A stretch of 52,608 nt of DNA from an uncultured Bacteroidia bacterium (GTDB lineage Bacteria; Bacteroidota; Bacteroidia; Bacteroidales; UBA932). Within the stretch, counting starts at the first letter, position 1; each line of letters opens with the position of its first letter. The notes under the pieces are model-generated. The model saw only the letters and a program-made list of their open reading frames with translations, had not been told where the DNA came from and did not search any database. Positions 1 to 18,853 of the stretch are shown one piece after another. The stretch is from assembly GCA_902797115.1 (NCBI GenBank), contig CADBRQ010000115.1:1-52608 (forward strand), read 5' to 3'. The position numbers and the translations under genes are program-made.

Positions 1-262
1 CTTTATTTATACGAAACTTTTTTTTTTTTTTTACATAGAACTCTTCTTCATCAAGTTTTGAATATTTGATAAATCTGTCTTCAATTTTTAACAACTCTTT
101 GTTATTGGCAACAAAAAGTTTTACCCAGGAGAGTTTGTAGAAAAAGCTACGATGCGTTGAATAGAACAAAGATTTTATACTCTCCCTACTTTTGAAGAGA
201 TATGAAAACGATTGGAGGGCAAACTTTAATGTTGCTATTAAACCAGATAATGCCGATATCAT
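1..262 (-). CDS. hypothetical protein, N-terminal part only (frame runs off the left edge)
   Basis: ATG at 262-260 (minus) opens a frame that stays open to position 1 (87 codons: MISALSGLIATLKFALQSFSYLF...LDEEEFYVKKKKKFRINK). It is absent from the ORF track because there is no stop inside the window. It contains the A15 run at 18-32. No family recognised. Confidence 0.3.
   Translation of the reverse strand, partial: MISALSGLIATLKFALQSFSYLFKSRESIKSLFYSTHRSFFYKLSWVKLFVANNKELLKIEDRFIKYSKLDEEEFYVKKKKKFRINK
18..32. repeat. homopolymer T15 (A15 on the coding minus strand)
   Basis: Fifteen consecutive T read directly at 18-32. It lies inside the edge ORF, where it encodes KKKKK. Confidence 0.95.
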
Positions 263-299
263 ATTAATAATCGATGATTTATAAACAGTTTAAGTCTTA

Positions 300-328
300 C
301 ATAACCTATTTTATGTCCAGTAGAAAAC
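300..328 (-). repeat. cassette-boundary repeat, short form, copy B
   Basis: Plus strand CATAACCTATTTTATGTCCAGTAGAAAAC, 26/29 identical to copy A at 680-708. The minus-strand reading starts GTTTTCTA, like the plus-strand copies C/D/E. Confidence 0.8.
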
Positions 329-358
329 TCTACGATTTTGTAGGTTTGTTAAATTTCT

Positions 359-428
359 GAGATTTTTGAAATGAGATTTTTGAAACGAGATTTTCATTTC
401 CAATTTTTCAAATCAAATTTTCTATTTC
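359..428. repeat. five degenerate 14-bp tandem repeats
   Basis: GAGATTTTTGAAAT / GAGATTTTTGAAAC / GAGATTTTCATTTC / CAATTTTTCAAATC / AAATTTTCTATTTC, head to tail from 359 to 428. The last unit overlaps the stop of the frameshifted small ORF. Confidence 0.8.
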
Positions 429-654
429 CGCATTTGCTCCTCAATATATTGTTTAGCTTTAGCGACTCCCCGCGCCTCTTTGCGCAACCACTCCACAAAT
501 TTATCTTTTGAAATATCAAAACCTCCGTTATAATCAAAAGCCTCATCTCTACCACCAAATCTTAATCTTCCACTCACATCCGTTTTTAGTATCGACACTT
601 TCTGCCCATCAAAGGTATAAAAAATAATAACAATGTAAATAAAATCTTTTTCAT
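422..654 (-). pseudogene. small ORF (~77 aa) disrupted by a 1-nt frameshift in a homopolymer
   Basis: ATG 654-652 gives only MKKILFTLLLFFIPLMGRKCRY*. The +2 frame stays open from just upstream of that ATG to TAG 424-422 but has no start codon (..EKDFIYIVIIFYTFDGQKVSILKTDVSGRLRFGGRDEAFDYNGGFDISKDKFVEWLRKEARGVAKAKQYIEEQMRK). One extra base in the A5 run right after the ATG, or in the T6 run, would fuse start and body. The total span is 233 nt, one short of 78 codons. Confidence 0.45.
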
Positions 655-679
655 AATATTAAATTTTGATTACCTTTTT

Positions 680-708
680 CACAACCTATTTTATGTCAAA
701 TAGAAAAC
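680..708 (-). repeat. cassette-boundary repeat, short form, copy A
   Basis: Plus strand CACAACCTATTTTATGTCAAATAGAAAAC. It overlaps the last six codons and the stop of the 51-aa ORF. It is an inverted match (21/29) to 1487-1515. Confidence 0.8.
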
Positions 709-846
709 AAAAAACTCATCATCCGGATTGCGCCTACGTAACTCGTCAACAAGGCCATCATATTCGACATCCGTAACCAAAGGCTCCCCCTTACGGTATG
801 CCTCATTATAGGCGATAAGTTGTCGCCTTAATTCAGGTATGGTCAT
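691..846 (-). CDS. 51-aa protein resembling NAD-dependent DNA ligase (LigA) N-terminal domain Ia
   Basis: Start taken at ATG 846-844, 7 nt after the stop of the 209-aa ORF. MTIPELRRQLIAYNEAYRKGEPLVTDVEYDGLVDELRRRNPDDEFF follows the LigA N-terminal pattern (ELR..L..h...Y....P.isD.EYD.L..EL..L....P). The upstream part of the 95-aa track ORF overlaps the previous gene and was discarded. Confidence 0.55.
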   Translation of the reverse strand: MTIPELRRQLIAYNEAYRKGEPLVTDVEYDGLVDELRRRNPDDEFFVFYLT

Positions 847-853
847 AATCTTT

Positions 854-1483
854 TTATTTGGATTTATTTTGCGCCCTACGGGCTGCGTGCATTTCTTTAA
901 CCTCAATCCAATAAGGAATAAGCGGTTCAATAACCTCGCCAAAAAGCTCCTCCTGAATAGCAATAAAATGCTCATCATCCTTTATACCTGTTGGCTTACC
1001 ATCCATTGCCCAATCACGCCACGCAATTTGTCTTTGGGCTTCCTCATCTGTCTCTGTACCATACACACTACCAAAATCACGATAATCGTTGTACTTTTGG
1101 GCAATGTACTTACCTAATAAACTAAGAATACTAACACCCAGATCAAACCCATTTACACGGGTGTAATAAACACTATCAAGCGGTTCGTCTTTGTTAACTT
1201 TGTATTTCCCCACCTGCACATACTGCGAGGATTTCATAACCGAATCTTTTTGTTTTGTGTTCATAAATTTATAGAATTTATTGATTAAGTTTTCAGCTTC
1301 TAATTCTTCCTTACTATTACGGCAATTTTCCTGTGCCTTATTTATATAACGTTCAAATTTCTCTTTGTCACGAATAGGGGTGTCACGAACTGAATCAAAA
1401 ATTATAATAGGTGGCTTCCCCTGCTTAACATTGTTATCGTACACACGTATTGGCACCTTTGCTTTAAGCACTTCGGGTTCCAA
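854..1483 (-). CDS. hypothetical protein (209 aa), orphan
   Basis: Uninterrupted 209-codon frame. The only start candidates near the 5' end are TTG 1483-1481 or GTG 1468-1466; the first ATG is codon 74. The frame opens directly after a TAG (1498-1496) that lies inside repeat C. No family recognised. Confidence 0.55.
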   Translation of the reverse strand: MEPEVLKAKVPIRVYDNNVKQGKPPIIIFDSVRDTPIRDKEKFERYINKAQENCRNSKEELEAENLINKFYKFMNTKQKDSVMKSSQYVQVGKYKVNKDEPLDSVYYTRVNGFDLGVSILSLLGKYIAQKYNDYRDFGSVYGTETDEEAQRQIAWRDWAMDGKPTGIKDDEHFIAIQEELFGEVIEPLIPYWIEVKEMHAARRAQNKSK

Positions 1484-1521
1484 TAAGTTTTCTATCTAGC
1501 AAAAAATAATTTATATAAAAC
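1480..1521 (+). repeat. cassette-boundary repeat, full palindromic form, copy C
   Basis: CCAATAA-GTTTTCTATCTAGCAAAAAATAATTTATATAAAAC. The 35-nt core is identical to copy D. The arms GTTTTCTAT / ATATAAAAC are an imperfect inverted repeat. Confidence 0.9.
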
Positions 1522-1583
1522 GGAATAAGAATAATGTAGAGGTTGTACATTGGCATTCTTTGAGAAAAGAAGCATTGGAAACA

Positions 1584-1724
1584 TTAAAAAGACAAGCTAT
1601 TAGTGAGGGCGGCCACATCCTCATACTGCCTTCCGTTATTTCGGAAGAGGCTGGCGGCCTTTCCAGCCATACTAACAGTTTGCTTTCTGACGACAAAGGT
1701 AATACAAAATTAACCAAAAACCAA
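1584..1724 (-). pseudogene. short head-phased frame with one internal TAA (decayed cassette ORF)
   Basis: It starts from TTG 1724-1722, in the same position and phase relative to repeat D as the 209-aa ORF start has relative to repeat C. Translation: L-V-F-G-TAA(1712-1710)-FCITFVVRKQTVSMAGKAASLFRNNGRQYEDVAALTNSLSF-TAA(1586-1584). Confidence 0.35.
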
Positions 1725-2028
1725 ATAGTTTTCTATCTAGCAAAAAATAATTTATATAAAACTGGAAGCGGATAGAAGAATTTTCGCTTGGAAGTTTTGG
1801 ATTTTCAAAAATTTCCGTTAAACTTGTAACGGAATCCAAGTCCAAATATTTAACCTCAGCGAGAGTCATTCGCTGTTTAGATATGAGGTCTTGGATTTTT
1901 CCTTTATCTAAATAGAGCAATTTGCCTTGTGCTACCTAATTTAGCCATTCAGCATTATCCTTCGGATATAATCCTCGTATATCAGAAACTATCAAACCCC
2001 TTCTTGTTTGATTGAAATGTATTCCCAC
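1672..2028 (-). pseudogene. head-phased frame with one internal TAG (decayed cassette ORF or gene remnant)
   Basis: It starts from GTG 2028-2026, in the same phase relative to repeat E. Translation: VGIHFNQTRRGLIVSDIRGLYPKDNAEWLN-TAG(1938-1936)-VAQGKLLYLDKGKIQDLISKQRMTLAEVKYLDLDSVTSLTEIFENPKLPSENSS..., reading on through repeat D to the stop at 1674-1672. The track lists only the distal 82 aa. Confidence 0.35.
1721..1762 (+). repeat. cassette-boundary repeat, full palindromic form, copy D
   Basis: CCAAATA-GTTTTCTATCTAGCAAAAAATAATTTATATAAAAC; core 35/35 identical to copy C, 241 bp downstream of it. Confidence 0.9.
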
Positions 2029-2069
2029 AATAAAGTTTTCTAGCTAACAAAAAACATTTTATATAAAAC
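2028..2069 (+). repeat. cassette-boundary repeat, full palindromic form, copy E
   Basis: CAATAAA-GTTTTCTAGCTAACAAAAAACATTTTATATAAAAC; core 31/35 identical to C/D, 307 bp downstream of D. Confidence 0.85.
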
Positions 2070-2125
2070 TTAAGGACTTTAAGTTGGTGAACTAAATGTA
2101 CACTTTTCGTTTTTCCGATTATAAC

Positions 2126-2614
2126 TCAATCTAAATCATTAATGAGAATCCAGAGAATAATCCCTGCTATTATCGCAATAAGTATAGCATTAGACCAGTT
2201 AATACACCGCTTCTTCTTTCCACTATCGTATTTGAAATAATGTCCTAACAACGTACTGTGATTAGTATTCGTGTTTGACATTGTTTCATTGTCTTCAATA
2301 ATATGATATTTGCTCTTTACCGCTTTTATCAGTAGTTTGGCCTGTTCTATCAGGCTATCGCACTCAACAATTTCATCTTCCAACTCTGCGCTATCCTCAA
2401 ATTCAGCAGGATATTGATGCTCTCGTTCTTCCTCATCGTCAATTGCTTCATAAGGCAGATTGGATTTCAGTCTATATATATCGGTTTGTATTACGGTAAG
2501 TTTGTTTTTCAAGTCTGACAGGTCGAATGACGGGTCTGATCGATAATCCTTCTGCATAAGTGCAGACAAGAATTCAATACCGTACTTAACAGCAGCCGAT
2601 TCGTTCTCAAACAT
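2126..2614 (-). CDS. hypothetical tail-anchored membrane protein with acidic central region
   Basis: 162-aa ORF with ATG 2614-2612, 5 nt after the stop of the glycosylase gene. It has an acidic stretch (AIDDEEEREHQYPAEFEDSAELEDEIVECD) and a single C-terminal hydrophobic helix (AILIAIIAGIILWILI). No family recognised. Confidence 0.6.
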   Translation of the reverse strand: MFENESAAVKYGIEFLSALMQKDYRSDPSFDLSDLKNKLTVIQTDIYRLKSNLPYEAIDDEEEREHQYPAEFEDSAELEDEIVECDSLIEQAKLLIKAVKSKYHIIEDNETMSNTNTNHSTLLGHYFKYDSGKKKRCINWSNAILIAIIAGIILWILINDLD

Positions 2615-2619
2615 AATGC

Positions 2620-3138
2620 TTACTCAAATATTCTGTTCCAGTCGTTTGCGAGGAAATTCAAATCACCCCATCCATGATTGGTATTCACACCACTTGTTTC
2701 AGGCATTCTTAATACACGAATTCGACGATTCGGAAATACTTTATTCAACTCTTTCTGTATCTTCTTTCCGAACTTCTTATACTTTCCGAAGCCATTGATT
2801 GCGATTGTCTCTATTGTAGGATTGCTTGACAGAAAACCACAAATATCAACTGGTCTTGCATCACGAATCTTATTGTCACTGCTACCTACACGAATAGCAG
2901 ATTCGTAATAATCCCACAACGCGATATGATACTTTGCCAACAACTGCTTTTTTTCATCGTAGTTGTTCGGTATCGGTTCGTTTTTCAGCAGACACAACAC
3001 CTTCCAAATCCTGTTTGAATTGGAATAGTAGTATTGCTGATGCTGGAGAGATTCTTCACCTGGTAATGTTCCAAGAATAACTATTCTCGGTTCATCACAC
3101 ATAAGAGGTTCAAATCCGTATGTCCGTTCTTCTATCAT
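2620..3138 (-). CDS. DNA-deoxyinosine (hypoxanthine) glycosylase-like, UDG superfamily
   Basis: 172 aa. RIVILGTLPGEESLQHQQYYYSNSNRIWKVL and HIALWDYYESAIRVGSSDNKI follow the ILGS.PG..SL....YY.h..N.FW and W D....R.GS.D..I patterns I associate with the family-6 UDG / deoxyinosine glycosylase group. Confidence 0.7.
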   Translation of the reverse strand: MIEERTYGFEPLMCDEPRIVILGTLPGEESLQHQQYYYSNSNRIWKVLCLLKNEPIPNNYDEKKQLLAKYHIALWDYYESAIRVGSSDNKIRDARPVDICGFLSSNPTIETIAINGFGKYKKFGKKIQKELNKVFPNRRIRVLRMPETSGVNTNHGWGDLNFLANDWNRIFE

Positions 3139-3357
3139 TTTTCAAAGATAGCAAAAAGGATTGATATGATAGACTGTATTGAGTTGATATCTGATTCTTC
3201 ATTGTCGTGAATGAAACGAAATGTAAGTTGAGGACAAAATATTCAAAAATATTATTTATGATTTTCCGATATCCAATGGCAAAAGCAGTTCCAAAACGCT
3301 TCTTTGTATAGAAAGTAAATAAACCCTCAAAAATACTGTTGGTAGTAGTTTATTTTG

Positions 3358-3365
3358 TATATTTG
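3358..3365 (+). promoter_or_regulatory. candidate Bacteroidota -7 box (TATATTTG) upstream of nqrA
   Basis: Matches TAnnTTTG, 52 nt upstream of the nqrA ATG. No clean TTTG -33 element at the expected 19-21 nt spacing. Confidence 0.3.
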
Positions 3366-3417
3366 TCTGATTAAATTAGTAATTTATATTTAAAAAATAA
3401 TTAACAGAAAATAAACT

Positions 3418-4797
3418 ATGGAGACCATTAGACTTCGCAAAGGGCTTGACCTAAAACTCAAGGGCGAGCCTCAAAAGAAAGTCCTAAAGACCATCACTCC
3501 AGAAGTTGTTGCGGTATTACCATCTGATTTTAAGGGCGTTACGCCTCGTCTTCTTGTTAAAGAGGGTGATACTGTAAAAGCGGGTCAATTTGTTTTTGCA
3601 GATAAAAAATGCGAGCAAATTGGCTTTTCTTCCCCTGTAAGCGGCACAGTAAAAGCTATTGTCAGGGGAGAGAAGCGCAAACTTCTGTCTGTTGATATTA
3701 CTCCCGATGCGACTACGCAATACGCTCAGTTTGAGCCTATCGCCGAAGTAAGCAAAGCAACAAGAGAAGATATTCAGCAGCGCCTTTTAGAGAGCGGACT
3801 TTGGGCAAACATTATTCAAAGACCATACGGCACAATTGCAAAACCAACAGACACTCCTAAAGCAATTGTTATATCTGCCTTTAACTCAGCGCCTTTGGCA
3901 GCCGACATCAATTTTGCAATAAAAGACGATGTAGATGCTATACAGATTGCTGTCAACGCATTGGCAAAATTTACAACCGGAAAAGTTTATGTAAACGTTA
4001 ATGCAGAGGGAAATGCTTCTCCGCTCACCCGTTTACAGAACGTGCAACTCACTGCATTTAAAGGTCCTCACCCTGCAGGCAACGTAGGTGTTCAGATTGC
4101 CCACCTCTGCCCTATAGGGAAAGGCGATATTGTGTGGACTATTAAACCACAGGCACTTACAGCAATCGGAAAACTCTTGTCCAAAGGTATTTACGATGTT
4201 CAGAGAGTTATTGCAATATCCGGCAACCGTGCAAAAGAGCAATGTTATGTTAAATGCCTGCCAGGAACACCTGTTAAGGATATCGTTGCAGCAGTGGGAG
4301 TTAAGGAAGAGGTTAAAGTTTACGGAGAAAAAATAGGAGTCAGATACATCAGCGGTAATCCATTGTGCGGAGAGAATGTTGGAGAGAATGGTTTCTTGGG
4401 GTTCTATGACGACACCGTTACCCTGATATCTGAAGGTAACTACAGAGAACTTTTCGGATGGGCCAAACTTATCCGCACCAAAAAGTATTCATTCTCAAAG
4501 AGTTACTTCTCTTGGCTTACTCCTAAAAAGAGATACAATGCAGATTCAAATACCAACGGAGGTGTAAGACCATTCGTGGTAAGTGGTCTGTATGAGAAAG
4601 TTCTGCCAATGGATATCTACCCTGTATATCTTCTCAAAGCAATTATAACAGAAGATATAGAGAAGATGGAACAATTCGGAATTTACGAAGTTCTTCCGGA
4701 AGATCTTGCTCTATGTGAGTACGTTTGCCCATCTAAACAAGATGTGTGCAAAATTGTTCAGGATGGTATAGATTTAATGTTAAAGGAGATGGCTTAG
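3418..4797 (+). CDS. nqrA: Na+-translocating NADH:quinone oxidoreductase subunit A
   Basis: 459 aa. The N-terminus (KGLDLKLKGEP...SPVSGTVKAIVRGEKRKLLSV) matches the NqrA pattern. First gene of a six-gene cluster in nqrABCDEF order. Confidence 0.92.
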   Translation: METIRLRKGLDLKLKGEPQKKVLKTITPEVVAVLPSDFKGVTPRLLVKEGDTVKAGQFVFADKKCEQIGFSSPVSGTVKAIVRGEKRKLLSVDITPDATTQYAQFEPIAEVSKATREDIQQRLLESGLWANIIQRPYGTIAKPTDTPKAIVISAFNSAPLAADINFAIKDDVDAIQIAVNALAKFTTGKVYVNVNAEGNASPLTRLQNVQLTAFKGPHPAGNVGVQIAHLCPIGKGDIVWTIKPQALTAIGKLLSKGIYDVQRVIAISGNRAKEQCYVKCLPGTPVKDIVAAVGVKEEVKVYGEKIGVRYISGNPLCGENVGENGFLGFYDDTVTLISEGNYRELFGWAKLIRTKKYSFSKSYFSWLTPKKRYNADSNTNGGVRPFVVSGLYEKVLPMDIYPVYLLKAIITEDIEKMEQFGIYEVLPEDLALCEYVCPSKQDVCKIVQDGIDLMLKEMA

Positions 4798-16351: not shown

Positions 16352-18853
16352 CTATGCACCATAAGTATTTTTAATCTCTTCCAGTTTTTCTGAGAGAGAT
16401 ATCAAATCTGGTACCAAAGCTGCACGCGGCTTGCTTCCATCTGCAGGACCAATGATTCCTGCCCTCTCCAACTGCTCTATCAGTCTAGAAGAGCGATTAT
16501 ATCCCAAATTAAGCTTTCTTTGTAGGAAAGAGGCAGAGCCTGAGCCATTTACAACAATAAGATGAGCCGCATCGTCGAACATCTCATCTCTGCGGGAAAG
16601 ATCTGCTTCACCAATCACTCGTCCTTCAGAAATATCTCCTCCTCCTTCTTCATCTTTAACCTCCGGAAGAACCATAGCGCCGCCGTAACCTTGCTGATGC
16701 GAGATATAATCTACCACCCTCTCAACCTCCTCTGTATCTATTAAAGCACATTGAATTCGCTCCAGATCGCTGCCATTTGAGAATAACATATCTCCCCTTC
16801 CTATCAGCTGATTTGCTCCGCTCTCATCCAAAATAGCACGGGAGTCTATACTTGAACGAACCATAAAAGCAATTCTTGCAGGAAAATTCGCTTTAATATT
16901 ACCTGTAATCACATTTGCAGTAGGACGCTGAGTTGCAATCACAAGATGTATTCCAACTGCACGGGCAAGCTGAGCAAGACGGGTTAAAGGAATCTCCACA
17001 TCCTTGCCGGCACGAATAATCAAATCTGAATATTCATCTATAACTACCACTATATAAGGCATAAAACGATGCCCTTTACGTGGAGAGAGTATCCTCTGCA
17101 AGAACCTGCTGTTATACTCTTTTATATTTCTCACCCCCGCCTCTTTCAAAAGGGCATACCTGTCGTCCATTTCAACGCACAAAGAGCGCAATGTAGTTAC
17201 AACTTGGTCTGTTTCAGTAATAACCGGCTCCGATGCAACAGGACTCATTGCCAGAAAATGGTTCTCTAATTTTGAATAAAGACTCAGCTCCACCTTCTTA
17301 GGATCTACGATAACTATCTTCAGCTCAGAAGGGTGCTTGGTATATAAAAGCGATGTTATAATAGCATTCAAACCTACAGACTTTCCTTGACCTGTTGCAC
17401 CGGCAACCAACAAATGCGGCATCCTCGCAAGATCAAAGGTAAATATCTCATTTTTAATAGTTTTACCTATCGCGATAGGTAATTCATATTTAGACTCCTT
17501 AGCCCCATCCTCTTTCATCTTGGTTTGAAGGTACTCCAAACAAGAGAGCATTGAGACAACACTCGACTTTTCATTTGCCACCTCAATACCAATTGCATTT
17601 GTCCCTGGAAGCGTCACAACCCTCACACCCTTAGCACTTAATGAAAGTTGAATATCCTCCTCCAAACGCTTGATCTGAGAGACTCTCACCCCCGGAGCAG
17701 GGACAACTTCATACAGAGTTACAGTAGGACCTATTCGTGCAGAGACCTTAGAAACCCCTATCTTATAGTTAGAGAGAGTATTAACTATTTTGTTCTTGTT
17801 CCTCTCCAACTCATCGGCAGAGACTTTATACCATTTATTGCTGTAAGATTCCAAAAGATCTAATGTAGGAGCTTGATAAGAAGAGAGTTCCAAACGAGGA
17901 TCGAAAGTTCTCTGAAGTTCCTCCTCTGTGTATTCTCCAAGGAGAGAATTTCCATCCTCAGAGTTTTCTCCTTTAACTACAACCTTAATATCTTCATTTT
18001 CAGAGGATTGTTTATTTTCATATGCAGAATTATTCTCTGACTCATCCAGATCAAACTCTACCTGATTATCATTCTCAACACCTGGAACAACTTCAAATGA
18101 TTTATCCTCCGGAAGATCTTCTACCTCTGAAAGATCCTCTACCTCTGAAAGATTACTATCCTCTTGATTCTCTTCACCTTCCCTGTTTTCATCAATATCG
18201 GAGCCATCTTCGACATCTTCTCCGCTATCGGATGAAACCGGAGAAAAAGCTCTGCTGAACTTCTGAACTAAATTCTTATTAATTATTATAAGCCAGACAA
18301 TCAGAGAGATAAACAAGATTGCTCCGGTCCCGATCGGACCTATCATGCTCTTCAACCACTTTGTAATATAGTATCCGTAAGACCCTCCTGCACTTGTTCC
18401 AAAAAGGGTATCTAATTTTGTAAAGGAGAAAATAAATGAGAATAAGACCGATATTAAAATACAACCGAAAACAGTAATCAAAAAGAGTCTTAATAAATGT
18501 ATCTTTTTAATCTTTAAACAAAAGAGAGCAACGCCCAAGAAAAAGAAAGGAATAATGAAGGCTCCTATGCCAAATAATTTGGAAACCAAGAAATTGGCCC
18601 ACACCCAACCTATCTTTCCGCCACTATTCTCAACACCTTGCAAAGAGGAGAATAAATCGTTGTCCGACAGGGCGCTTTGGTCTTGAGCCCAAGTAAAAAG
18701 GTACGAAATCAGAGATACGAGAGTATAAACTGCAATTGCACCCGCTACCAAACCACATATAAGATAAAGGGCATCTTTACGGACAGGTGCCTGCATCTCC
18801 CTCTCCATTTGGTCCTTTCTTTCCAATTCCTTCTGTTTCTTAGTCTTAGCCAT
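16352..18853 (-). CDS. ftsK: DNA translocase FtsK/SpoIIIE
   Basis: 833 aa: N-terminal TM helices, an acidic low-complexity linker, Walker A LVAGATGQGKSV, and a C-terminal gamma-domain-like region (SASFLQRKLNLGYNRSSRLIEQLE). Confidence 0.93.
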   Translation of the reverse strand: MAKTKKQKELERKDQMEREMQAPVRKDALYLICGLVAGAIAVYTLVSLISYLFTWAQDQSALSDNDLFSSLQGVENSGGKIGWVWANFLVSKLFGIGAFIIPFFFLGVALFCLKIKKIHLLRLFLITVFGCILISVLFSFIFSFTKLDTLFGTSAGGSYGYYITKWLKSMIGPIGTGAILFISLIVWLIIINKNLVQKFSRAFSPVSSDSGEDVEDGSDIDENREGEENQEDSNLSEVEDLSEVEDLPEDKSFEVVPGVENDNQVEFDLDESENNSAYENKQSSENEDIKVVVKGENSEDGNSLLGEYTEEELQRTFDPRLELSSYQAPTLDLLESYSNKWYKVSADELERNKNKIVNTLSNYKIGVSKVSARIGPTVTLYEVVPAPGVRVSQIKRLEEDIQLSLSAKGVRVVTLPGTNAIGIEVANEKSSVVSMLSCLEYLQTKMKEDGAKESKYELPIAIGKTIKNEIFTFDLARMPHLLVAGATGQGKSVGLNAIITSLLYTKHPSELKIVIVDPKKVELSLYSKLENHFLAMSPVASEPVITETDQVVTTLRSLCVEMDDRYALLKEAGVRNIKEYNSRFLQRILSPRKGHRFMPYIVVVIDEYSDLIIRAGKDVEIPLTRLAQLARAVGIHLVIATQRPTANVITGNIKANFPARIAFMVRSSIDSRAILDESGANQLIGRGDMLFSNGSDLERIQCALIDTEEVERVVDYISHQQGYGGAMVLPEVKDEEGGGDISEGRVIGEADLSRRDEMFDDAAHLIVVNGSGSASFLQRKLNLGYNRSSRLIEQLERAGIIGPADGSKPRAALVPDLISLSEKLEEIKNTYGA

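Follow-up and report, generated by a model that had tools for sequence, protein, structure and literature searches.

Candidate Xer/dif-like sites at module breakpoints in a low-GC locus of an uncultured Bacteroidales bacterium

Copies of a discrete 35-bp repeat, which has the predicted layout of a tyrosine-recombinase core site, lie at the borders of orphan and broken gene modules at the left end of a 52,608-base stretch of DNA from an uncultured Bacteroidia bacterium (Bacteroidales; UBA932; contig CADBRQ010000115.1, positions 1-52,608, hereafter the window). We tentatively read the locus as a decaying array of modules that was assembled and reshuffled at the Xer/dif-like sites of a tyrosine recombinase encoded elsewhere or since lost, and we give this account a little less than an even chance. 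If the repeats are recombination sites, they would offer, for the question of how arrays of orphan toxin, immunity and defense genes are assembled in Bacteroidales, a concrete 35-bp candidate of defined architecture, located at breakpoints inside recognizable genes and recurring before a homologous gene in a second organism. If they are a substrate of Xer or of an XerD-like enzyme, the machinery of chromosome dimer resolution would be connected with the way in which conflict genes are shuffled in gut bacteria; if they are merely a decayed relic, the locus would be a minor curiosity of one uncultured lineage. Three metagenome contigs with the same locus extend past position 1 (L001 and L002 among them), and the four assemblies of the locus, at least 99.9% identical, are effectively one clone.

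Architecture and clustering of the sites

Copies were searched for with the 22-nt core GTTTTCTATYTRRCAWAAAATA, allowing at most 2 mismatches, over all 52,608 bases and with shuffled sequences as control. The core occurs at 307-328 and 687-708 on the minus strand and at 1487-1508, 1728-1749 and 2035-2056 on the plus strand, with 0-2 mismatches; the chance expectation from the shuffles is 0.04, and there is no sixth match. The first-pass annotation of this DNA had described five copies of one element at these places, and most of what it said of them stands: 1487-1521 and 1728-1762 are identical (100% over 36 nt), the third plus-strand copy (2035-2069) departs from them at 4 positions out of 35, and 26 of 29 positions agree between the two minus-strand copies. 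These two had been taken to be shorter, but joint alignment gives them 35 nt (294-328 and 674-708). The array continues beyond position 1, where L001 and L002 add site F, a partial site G, site H and fragments to the left. The copies in the window are as follows, with the strand on which each is written from left arm to tail.

294-328, plus strand: site A, type 2, GTCTTACATAA CCTATT TTATGTCCAGT AGAAAAC (nhmmer 31.9 bits)
674-708, plus strand: site B, type 2, CTTTTTCACAA CCTATT TTATGTCAAAT AGAAAAC; its tail truncates a LigA-like 51-aa open reading frame (ORF)
1487-1521, minus strand: site C, type 1, GTTTTATATAA ATTATT TTTTGCTAGAT AGAAAAC; its tail adjoins a 73-codon leader and a 136-aa gene
1728-1762, minus strand: site D, type 1, with the same sequence as C; a noncoding module, X', adjoins its tail
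2035-2069, minus strand: site E, type 1 variant, GTTTTATATAA AATGTT TTTTGTTAGCT AGAAAAC; its tail adjoins a MuF_C fragment

Each site consists of an 11-bp arm, a 6-bp spacer, a second 11-bp arm and the 7-nt tail AGAAAAC; its edges are sharp on both sides, and the flanks are unrelated. The copies fall into two types. Type 1 (E, D, C and the partial G) has the left arm GTTTTATATAA, the spacer ATTATT, the right arm TTTTGCTAGAT and the tail AGAAAAC, and type 2 (A, B, F and H) has the left arm GTCTTTCACAA, the spacer CCTATT, the right arm TTATGTCAAAT and the same tail. CCTATT is constant across the four type-2 copies and ATTATT is found in C, D and G, the last being reduced to its left arm, its spacer and TTTT. 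In type 1, a good left arm and spacer are combined with a degenerate right arm; in type 2, a canonical XerD-like right arm is combined with a weaker left arm. After one of them is inverted, the two types are 71% alike. Dyad symmetry amounts to 5-7 of 11 positions per copy, against a background of 2.85 +/- 1.48, and the nine-copy consensus GTTTTACATAA nnTATT TTATGTCAAAT, whose arms agree at 9 of 11 positions, is a cleaner dyad than any individual copy. All copies keep the 11-6-11 register, as CAYAA-N6-TTAT in type 2 and TATAA-N6-TTTT in type 1. The 28-bp core of an Xer/dif-type site consists of two partly palindromic 11-bp arms around a 6-bp spacer, with ATAA/TTAT on the inside; judged by sequence, the copies share this tyrosine-recombinase architecture.

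The copies are tightly clustered: at least eight, together with fragments, lie within 6.8 kb of low-GC DNA that is a mosaic of modules unrelated to one another, and none lies in the other 50 kb. Along the gene direction, E, D and C point forward, B, A and F backward, G forward and H backward, so that all type-1 copies face the gene direction and all type-2 copies the opposite way. Start-to-start spacings are 241, 307, 380 nt and more; these, together with the mixed orientation, set the locus apart from a CRISPR array with its regular 25-50-nt spacers, a candidate that we rejected.

The intergenic region between the PAP2 gene and the 476-aa gene (L001 16790-17170) is dense with fragments, among them an arm ACTTAACATAA, a type-1-like TATAAATAATTTTTTG, a piece CTCATT TTATGTTAAGT GAAAAAG and a 13-nt type-1 arm, next to the full type-2 copy H.

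Modules and their breakpoints

In gene direction (the plus strand of L001), the locus starts with the Nqr operon on the opposite strand, a glycosylase gene of the UDG family, a 162-aa gene and the first copy of a 30-bp direct repeat (DR). It continues with the sites and modules E-M1, D-M2 (the element X'), C-M3, B-M4 and A-M5 (a 450-aa gene) and the second DR copy, which lies in a terminator hairpin. It ends with F and an element X, the partial site G, a convergent ArsP/HMA permease gene whose stop codon G overlaps, a 100-aa gene, the PAP2 gene, the fragment-rich intergenic region with H, and the 476-aa gene. The features of the window between and beside the sites are listed here.

1-262, minus strand: the 5' part of module M5 (the 450-aa gene), which is complete at L001 12252-13604
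329-673, minus strand: module M4, a frameshifted small gene with an ATG at 654 and a signal-peptide-like start; a 58-aa frame lies at 422-598
691-846, minus strand: 51-aa ORF, an N-terminal fragment of an NAD-dependent DNA ligase (PHROG 3869, E 1.5e-5; weak NCBIfam support)
854-1264, minus strand: gene of about 136 aa (within module M3), from a family of 120-146-aa proteins
1265-1483, minus strand: 73-codon in-frame leader or gene fragment, which opens directly after a TAG inside site C; no family match
1522-1727, minus strand: module M2 (X'), a noncoding, 73-78% copy of element X
1763-2034, minus strand: module M1, a gene fragment open over its 272 nt except for one TAG (1936-1938)
2126-2614 and 2620-3138, minus strand: the 162-aa gene and the DNA-deoxyinosine glycosylase (UDG family) gene, an accessory pair

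Gene fragments break off precisely at the edges of the sites, which gives these the look of recombination junctions. M1, which has neither a start nor a stop of its own, runs from site E into site D, and its residues 1-48 match positions 54-102 of the 103 positions of the Pfam domain MuF_C (E 2.7e-7, above the curated cutoff). This domain, which we take to be the pre-toxin domain of the MuF system, is severed midway exactly at the tail of E. The 51-aa ligase fragment terminates inside site B; the copy that overlaps its stop is the one at 680-708 and not, as first annotated, site A. Fragments adjoin the tail side of the sites, and the frame downstream of E stands in the same phase to its site as the frame downstream of C does. 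The 209-aa frame after site C is really the gene of about 136 aa preceded by the 73-codon leader; its homologues match residues 74-188 only. With these fragments and with pseudogenes at the site joints, the initial picture of repeats that delimit a mosaic of orphan and decayed modules is borne out. The damage ascribed to the modules (a nonsense codon, a frameshift and an A15 run) was likewise found, as the TAG in M1, the frameshift in 329-673 and a T/A run at 17-33.

The cargo is of the conflict type, which is supported by sequence matches of two modules: the MuF_C polymorphic-toxin fragment and the 136-aa family, some of whose occurrences are C-terminal fusions to Zeta_toxin proteins. MuF stands at the head of a phage-associated system that delivers polymorphic toxins (PMC3482391, PMC5576092). 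As in polymorphic-toxin loci with orphan toxin cassettes (Zhang et al. 2012, PMC3482391), M1 joins a MuF_C end to an unrelated C-terminal stretch, in the manner of orphan cassettes, and small genes accompany it. Unlike them, the 58 kb at hand hold no full-length MuF toxin or prophage, and the repeats are not coding homology arms: they have in-frame stops inside, and the domain is cut midway. No module matched an immunity family of Pfam, NCBIfam, PADLOC or PHROG, PADLOC reported no defense system, and PDB sequence searches with the 450-aa and 209-aa proteins gave no match.

The 51-aa ORF corresponds to a stand-alone N-terminal (Ia-like) ligase segment and directly follows the small gene of the Zeta-toxin-fused family; it could be debris, or it could encode a decoy or immunity-like peptide. 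Toward its 3' end and shortly ahead of site A, M4 carries the 14-mer TGAGATTTTTGAAA twice in perfect tandem (358-385).

The perfect 30-bp DR, TATAATCGGAAAAACGAAAAGTGTACATTT, has its copies at 2094-2123 (minus strand) and at L001 13736-13765, and these bracket a 3,345-bp segment that holds sites E to A and the 450-aa gene. On the right, the repeat forms the left half of a complete terminator hairpin, the other half of which is missing at the left copy, and the repeat is found only in the contigs of this clone. It resembles an att-type duplication, or else the trace of an insertion that hit the terminator of the 162-aa gene.

Likeness to dif sites and readings of the locus

The site recurs in another organism. 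On contigs L044-L047, HipA and GmrSD genes enclose a truncated homologue of the UDG gene (84% identical in nucleotide sequence), and 9 nt upstream of the ATG of this homologue is a copy of the site that covers profile positions 1-35 (E 6.4e-4). In L044 this copy is 27/35 identical to site B and is oriented relative to the gene as A and B are; it lies between the ATG and a promoter-like motif, TTTG-N19-TATCTTTG, which presumably corresponds to the Bacteroides promoter consensus. Elsewhere, the UDG/162-aa pair occurs beside a tyrosine and a serine recombinase (a UDG/159-aa pair directly followed by a 198-aa Phage_integrase gene and a resolvase), beside HNH and DUF1653 genes, or co-oriented with Sel1 and PAD_porph genes. 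The element was not found in these UDG relatives (L022-27, L048-61), the recombinase-bearing locus included. A degenerate pattern covering all local copies matched 2 of 185,579 species genomes and 12 metagenome contigs, none of them homologous to the locus, and four viral scans gave chance matches only, one of which (L021) is the same contig as a metagenome match (L012) and another of which (L043) lies inside an 885-aa ORF.

The right arm of site B is the XerD arm predicted for Capnocytophaga by Kono et al. and is 1 base off the E. coli arm; the B. fragilis dif predicted in the same work is ATTTCGTATAA ATTAGT TTATGTCATAT. A canonical XerD-arm pattern, defined independently, has 6 matches in 58.9 kb where 1.8 would be expected; four of them fall in the 6.8-kb stretch, which makes up 12% of the sequence. 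Scores were computed with a dif weight matrix built solely from 18 published Bacteroidetes dif predictions, whose own scores range from 20.6 to 37.8. On it, the consensus reaches 23.3 and a chimera of a type-1 left and a type-2 right half 24.35, both within the training range, and the best shuffle 18.5. Taken post hoc, these comparisons suggest that the sites are a family derived from an Xer-type site, each type with one degenerate half.

Two metagenome contigs (L011 2660-2687 and L014 5803-5830) carry AAAGTCTATAA ATTATT TTATGTCAAAT TGAAAAC, which scores 23.05 on the dif matrix and unites the type-1 spacer with the type-2 right arm and the tail. Both contigs have 31% GC and are nearly without ORFs by table 11.

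We propose that modules would have been acquired, deleted and inverted by site-specific recombination between the sites. The direct repeats E/D/C and B/A/F/H would permit excision and insertion of modules, and inverted pairs such as C/B would permit inversion. If a site composed of a type-1 left half and a type-2 right half recombined in this way with its inverted counterpart, the product would be exactly the oppositely oriented type-1 and type-2 pair that is observed. Because no recombinase is encoded locally, the enzyme would act in trans or have been lost: it might be the host Xer, a rAID-type XerD-like enzyme elsewhere in the genome, or a lost integrase, and the array would now be decaying. 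We infer both that the sites are or were recombination substrates and what kind of enzyme acted on them.

Within the Bacteroidales there are precedents for such an arrangement. Dif-like sites border microvirus proviruses of Bacteroides and Prevotella that lack an integrase, and some of these proviruses have an additional inverted site (PMC3091885); arrays of recombinase-associated acquired interbacterial defense (rAID-1) combine an XerD-family recombinase with repetitive intergenic sequences (10.1101/471110). The locus resembles integrative mobile elements exploiting Xer (IMEX) at dif, such as CTXphi, VGJphi and TLCphi in Vibrio and BMV1-7 in Bacteroides and Prevotella (PMC3091885): there is no integrase, 11-6-11 dif-like sites flank the modules, each dif-like site has one good and one degenerate half, and F-X-G recalls the inverted dif-like pair around about 130 nt in the CTXphi attP and in Prevotella BMVs. 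It differs from them in having no phage genes, in its sites not all being direct, and in the absence of an intact canonical dif from the locus. The 2011 microvirus paper was all that a literature search on Xer or IMEX in Bacteroidales turned up. The F-X-G fold surpasses shuffles only marginally (z = -0.44 on the minus strand and -1.6 on the plus strand), and a CTXphi-like folded attP, which we rejected for this unit, is suggestive at best.

The pdif modules of Acinetobacter plasmids (PMC7399989, PMC5790767) are likewise small, are bounded by XerC/D-like sites without a dedicated local recombinase and commonly carry toxin-antitoxin-type cargo, as here. Their sites strictly alternate and are on plasmids, whereas those studied here run three one way and then three or four the other, are chromosomal, belong to a different phylum and have an extra conserved 7-nt tail.

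Several results weigh against an array built at Xer/dif-like sites. No Phage_integrase or recombinase domain was found in window ORFs of at least 170 aa or in the 6.2 kb to the left, so that a recombinase is absent from -6.2 kb to +50 kb; the first-pass annotation had rightly seen none in the window and had expected one left of position 1, which the added sequence does not supply. The order of units is invariant and no structural variation was seen, but only across the four assemblies, which are all one clone and make the comparison of strains uninformative. Of the refuting conditions named at the outset, which are thus only half informative, it is the lack of a nearby recombinase that counts against the reading. 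Single copies score 10.9-11.8 on the dif matrix, against a shuffle maximum of 12.9 +/- 2.4, which is not significant, and the best identity to the B. fragilis dif, 20/28, is attained by 26% of shuffles. The consensus argument for dif-likeness is post hoc and was weighted accordingly, and no intact parental site, with a type-1 left and a type-2 right half, was found in the locus. Comparative support comes from one foreign copy, the family being almost absent from public collections. The pattern of two orientations is unlike both simple IMEX arrays, where all sites are direct, and the strict alternation of pdif modules.

In the initial view of the repeats as recombination sites, they were to belong to a rAID, integron or shufflon system. 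The recombination part gains from the fragments that end at site edges, and the memberships do not hold. It is unlikely, in our estimate, that the locus is a rAID-1 or integron-like defense array whose XerD-like recombinase lies on another contig or was recently deleted and whose repeats are the conserved intergenic motifs of rAID. Short co-oriented genes with repeats between units are what such an array would have, in the same order, Bacteroidales, and the UDG gene, the 162-aa gene, M1, M3, M4 and the 450-aa gene all lie on the minus strand at 33-36% GC, where rAID-1 is defined by at least 2 co-directional genes and a GC of at most 41%. A toxin fragment and a Zeta-toxin-associated small protein in the cargo agree with this, the XerD family of the rAID recombinase makes dif-like, Xer-like sites plausible and expected, and in a relative the homologous UDG/159-aa pair precedes an integrase and a resolvase, albeit in a locus without the element. 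In rAID-1 (Ross et al.; 10.1101/471110; PMC12247911), however, the array is defined by a 5' XerD-like recombinase (>44% identical to BF9343_RS08045), which is missing here over -6.2 kb to +50 kb; what borders the co-oriented run at its 5' end is the Nqr operon. Moreover, none of the modules matches a known immunity family, the sites have two orientations, the units are mostly fragments and not genes of 100-300 codons, and the array spans about 2-7 kb, compared with up to 16 kb and 31 genes. Integron arrays similarly have one site per unit border and promoterless cassettes that are often orphan genes, and the structured element here (the X hairpin with its compensatory changes) beside type-1 sites is a further likeness. 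There is, though, no intI, attI or Pc; attC sites are 57-141 nt long, in one orientation, with R''/L''/L'/R' boxes, as against 35 bp and mixed orientations here, and they read RYYYAAC...GTTRRRY where these sites end in GTTTT...AAAAC. A shufflon, also named at first, would call for an Rci-type recombinase, which is absent, and for inverted sfx repeats between alternative 3' ends of a single gene; the modules here are genes and fragments unrelated to each other and are not such alternative ends.

Doubtful to the same degree is a reading of the repeats as terminal inverted repeats of a small nonautonomous element, a miniature inverted-repeat transposable element (MITE) or insertion sequence remnant, in which types 1 and 2 would be the two ends and repeated insertion would have nested the pairs (C,B), (D,A) and (E,F). 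The 71% likeness of the types after inversion and the position of type 1 on one side and type 2 on the other do make nested inverted pairs, and F-X-G forms a unit of about 190 nt whose ends, F and G, pair with each other and enclose a hairpin (z = -1.6; 10 of 200 shuffles as good). Yet the three pairs show no target-site duplications, a transposase is lacking, the likeness of the ends does not continue into the interior, and H and the L044 copy are solitary. The absence of copies from the other 50 kb and the two nonhomologous pattern matches among the 185,579 species genomes likewise speak, as far as the data reach, against the genome-wide repetitive extragenic palindrome or MITE family considered initially. 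Less probable still is a regulatory role, in which a regulator would bind the dyad as an operator or 5'-leader element that local duplication has spread and that takes no part in recombination. Such a role would suit the dyad, the single site at the upstream edge of each module in gene direction, the position of the L044 copy between its promoter-like motif and the ATG, and the distance of A and B from start codons (31 nt to the ATG of the 450-aa gene at 262 on the minus strand, and 19 nt, respectively). F and H, on the other hand, are in convergent intergenic regions with no gene downstream, the severed coding sequences at the sites are left unexplained, start-codon distances vary from 0 to 31 nt, and no Bacteroidetes -33/-7 promoter motif was found by inspection within the sites, let alone a conserved one. 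We hold it to be just as improbable that the repeats are functionless debris of local segmental duplication, gene conversion and deletion in a decaying acquired patch. The identity of C and D, flanks included, the origin of X' as a diverged duplicate of X, the perfect 30-bp direct repeat around 3.3 kb and the mostly broken cargo are all in keeping with it, but duplication alone gives no sharp-edged 35-bp units in unrelated DNA, and it explains neither the foreign copy before a homologous gene in another organism nor the invariant spacers beside variable arms and a consensus dyad cleaner than the copies.

Returning to an array built at Xer/dif-like sites, it is conceivable, though we think rather unlikely, that Bacteroidales chromosomes more generally carry cassettes akin to dif modules: small toxin, immunity or defense genes bounded by 35-bp dif mimics and moved, deleted or inverted in trans by the housekeeping Xer enzymes or an XerD-like paralogue. 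Such cassettes would be a recombinase-free counterpart of rAID and integrons and would account for the same site before a glycosylase gene in the defense island of another species.

Genomic setting and accessory features

The first 3 kb of the window have 33-36% GC and the rest about 40%, and beyond 3.4 kb all larger ORFs are housekeeping genes (the Nqr operon, glnA, FtsK, HisRS, L25, Pth, NrdD and others), which upholds the early statement that accessory-looking DNA is confined to the repeat-bearing left end. GC skew over 58 kb is governed by gene strand. BLAST of the 3.6-kb island against phage and plasmid sequences gave no match, and orthologues of the permease (about 70% identity) have different neighbors and unrelated downstream DNA. 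FtsK is the activator of Xer at dif; the gene of this DNA translocase (16352-18853, minus strand) is 14 kb from the array, a position that alone supports no inference.

The 450-aa protein has distant homologues in Bacteroidales, conserved proteins of about 400 aa, a few of them named NUDIX-family by JGI; they are found in housekeeping contexts, not in cassettes. Those with 33-39% identity (L038 6001-7232, L033 5883-7076) are encoded between lgt and a convergent mutS or after a gene for an extracytoplasmic function (ECF) sigma factor. Krupovic and Forterre located a Bacteroides dif-like attachment site adjoining mutS. Within the 450-aa gene, a homopolymer of about 15 nt (window 17-33; L001 12449-12508) is located at the contig end in the window and coincides with a 42-nt gap in L002; it could be a weak spot of assembly or a slippage-prone tract able to switch the gene on and off.

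Element X lies at L001 13830-13960, downstream of the ArsP/HMA permease gene. X and X' have a 22-bp hairpin in common, in which 4 pairs are compensatory and no pair is broken; it has no Rfam match, the Rfam search (window 1-3500; L001 13550-17400) returning only chance miRNA-like matches on hairpins. The apical loop of X' carries a 45-nt insertion with GGCGGCC repeats at its flanks, and X and X' each adjoin the left arm of a type-1 site. The pair could represent a small RNA or a folded-DNA recombination element.

The two UDG genes lose their homology directly after a native GTTTTCT heptamer (window 2830-2836; L044 10302-10308), which equals the first 7 nt of type-2 sites; this may reflect an event at a secondary site or a coincidence. 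The partner of the UDG gene encodes 153-162 aa with a hydrophobic C-terminus, and the pair moves through unrelated neighborhoods. Together, the two genes may form an uncharacterized two-gene accessory or defense module.

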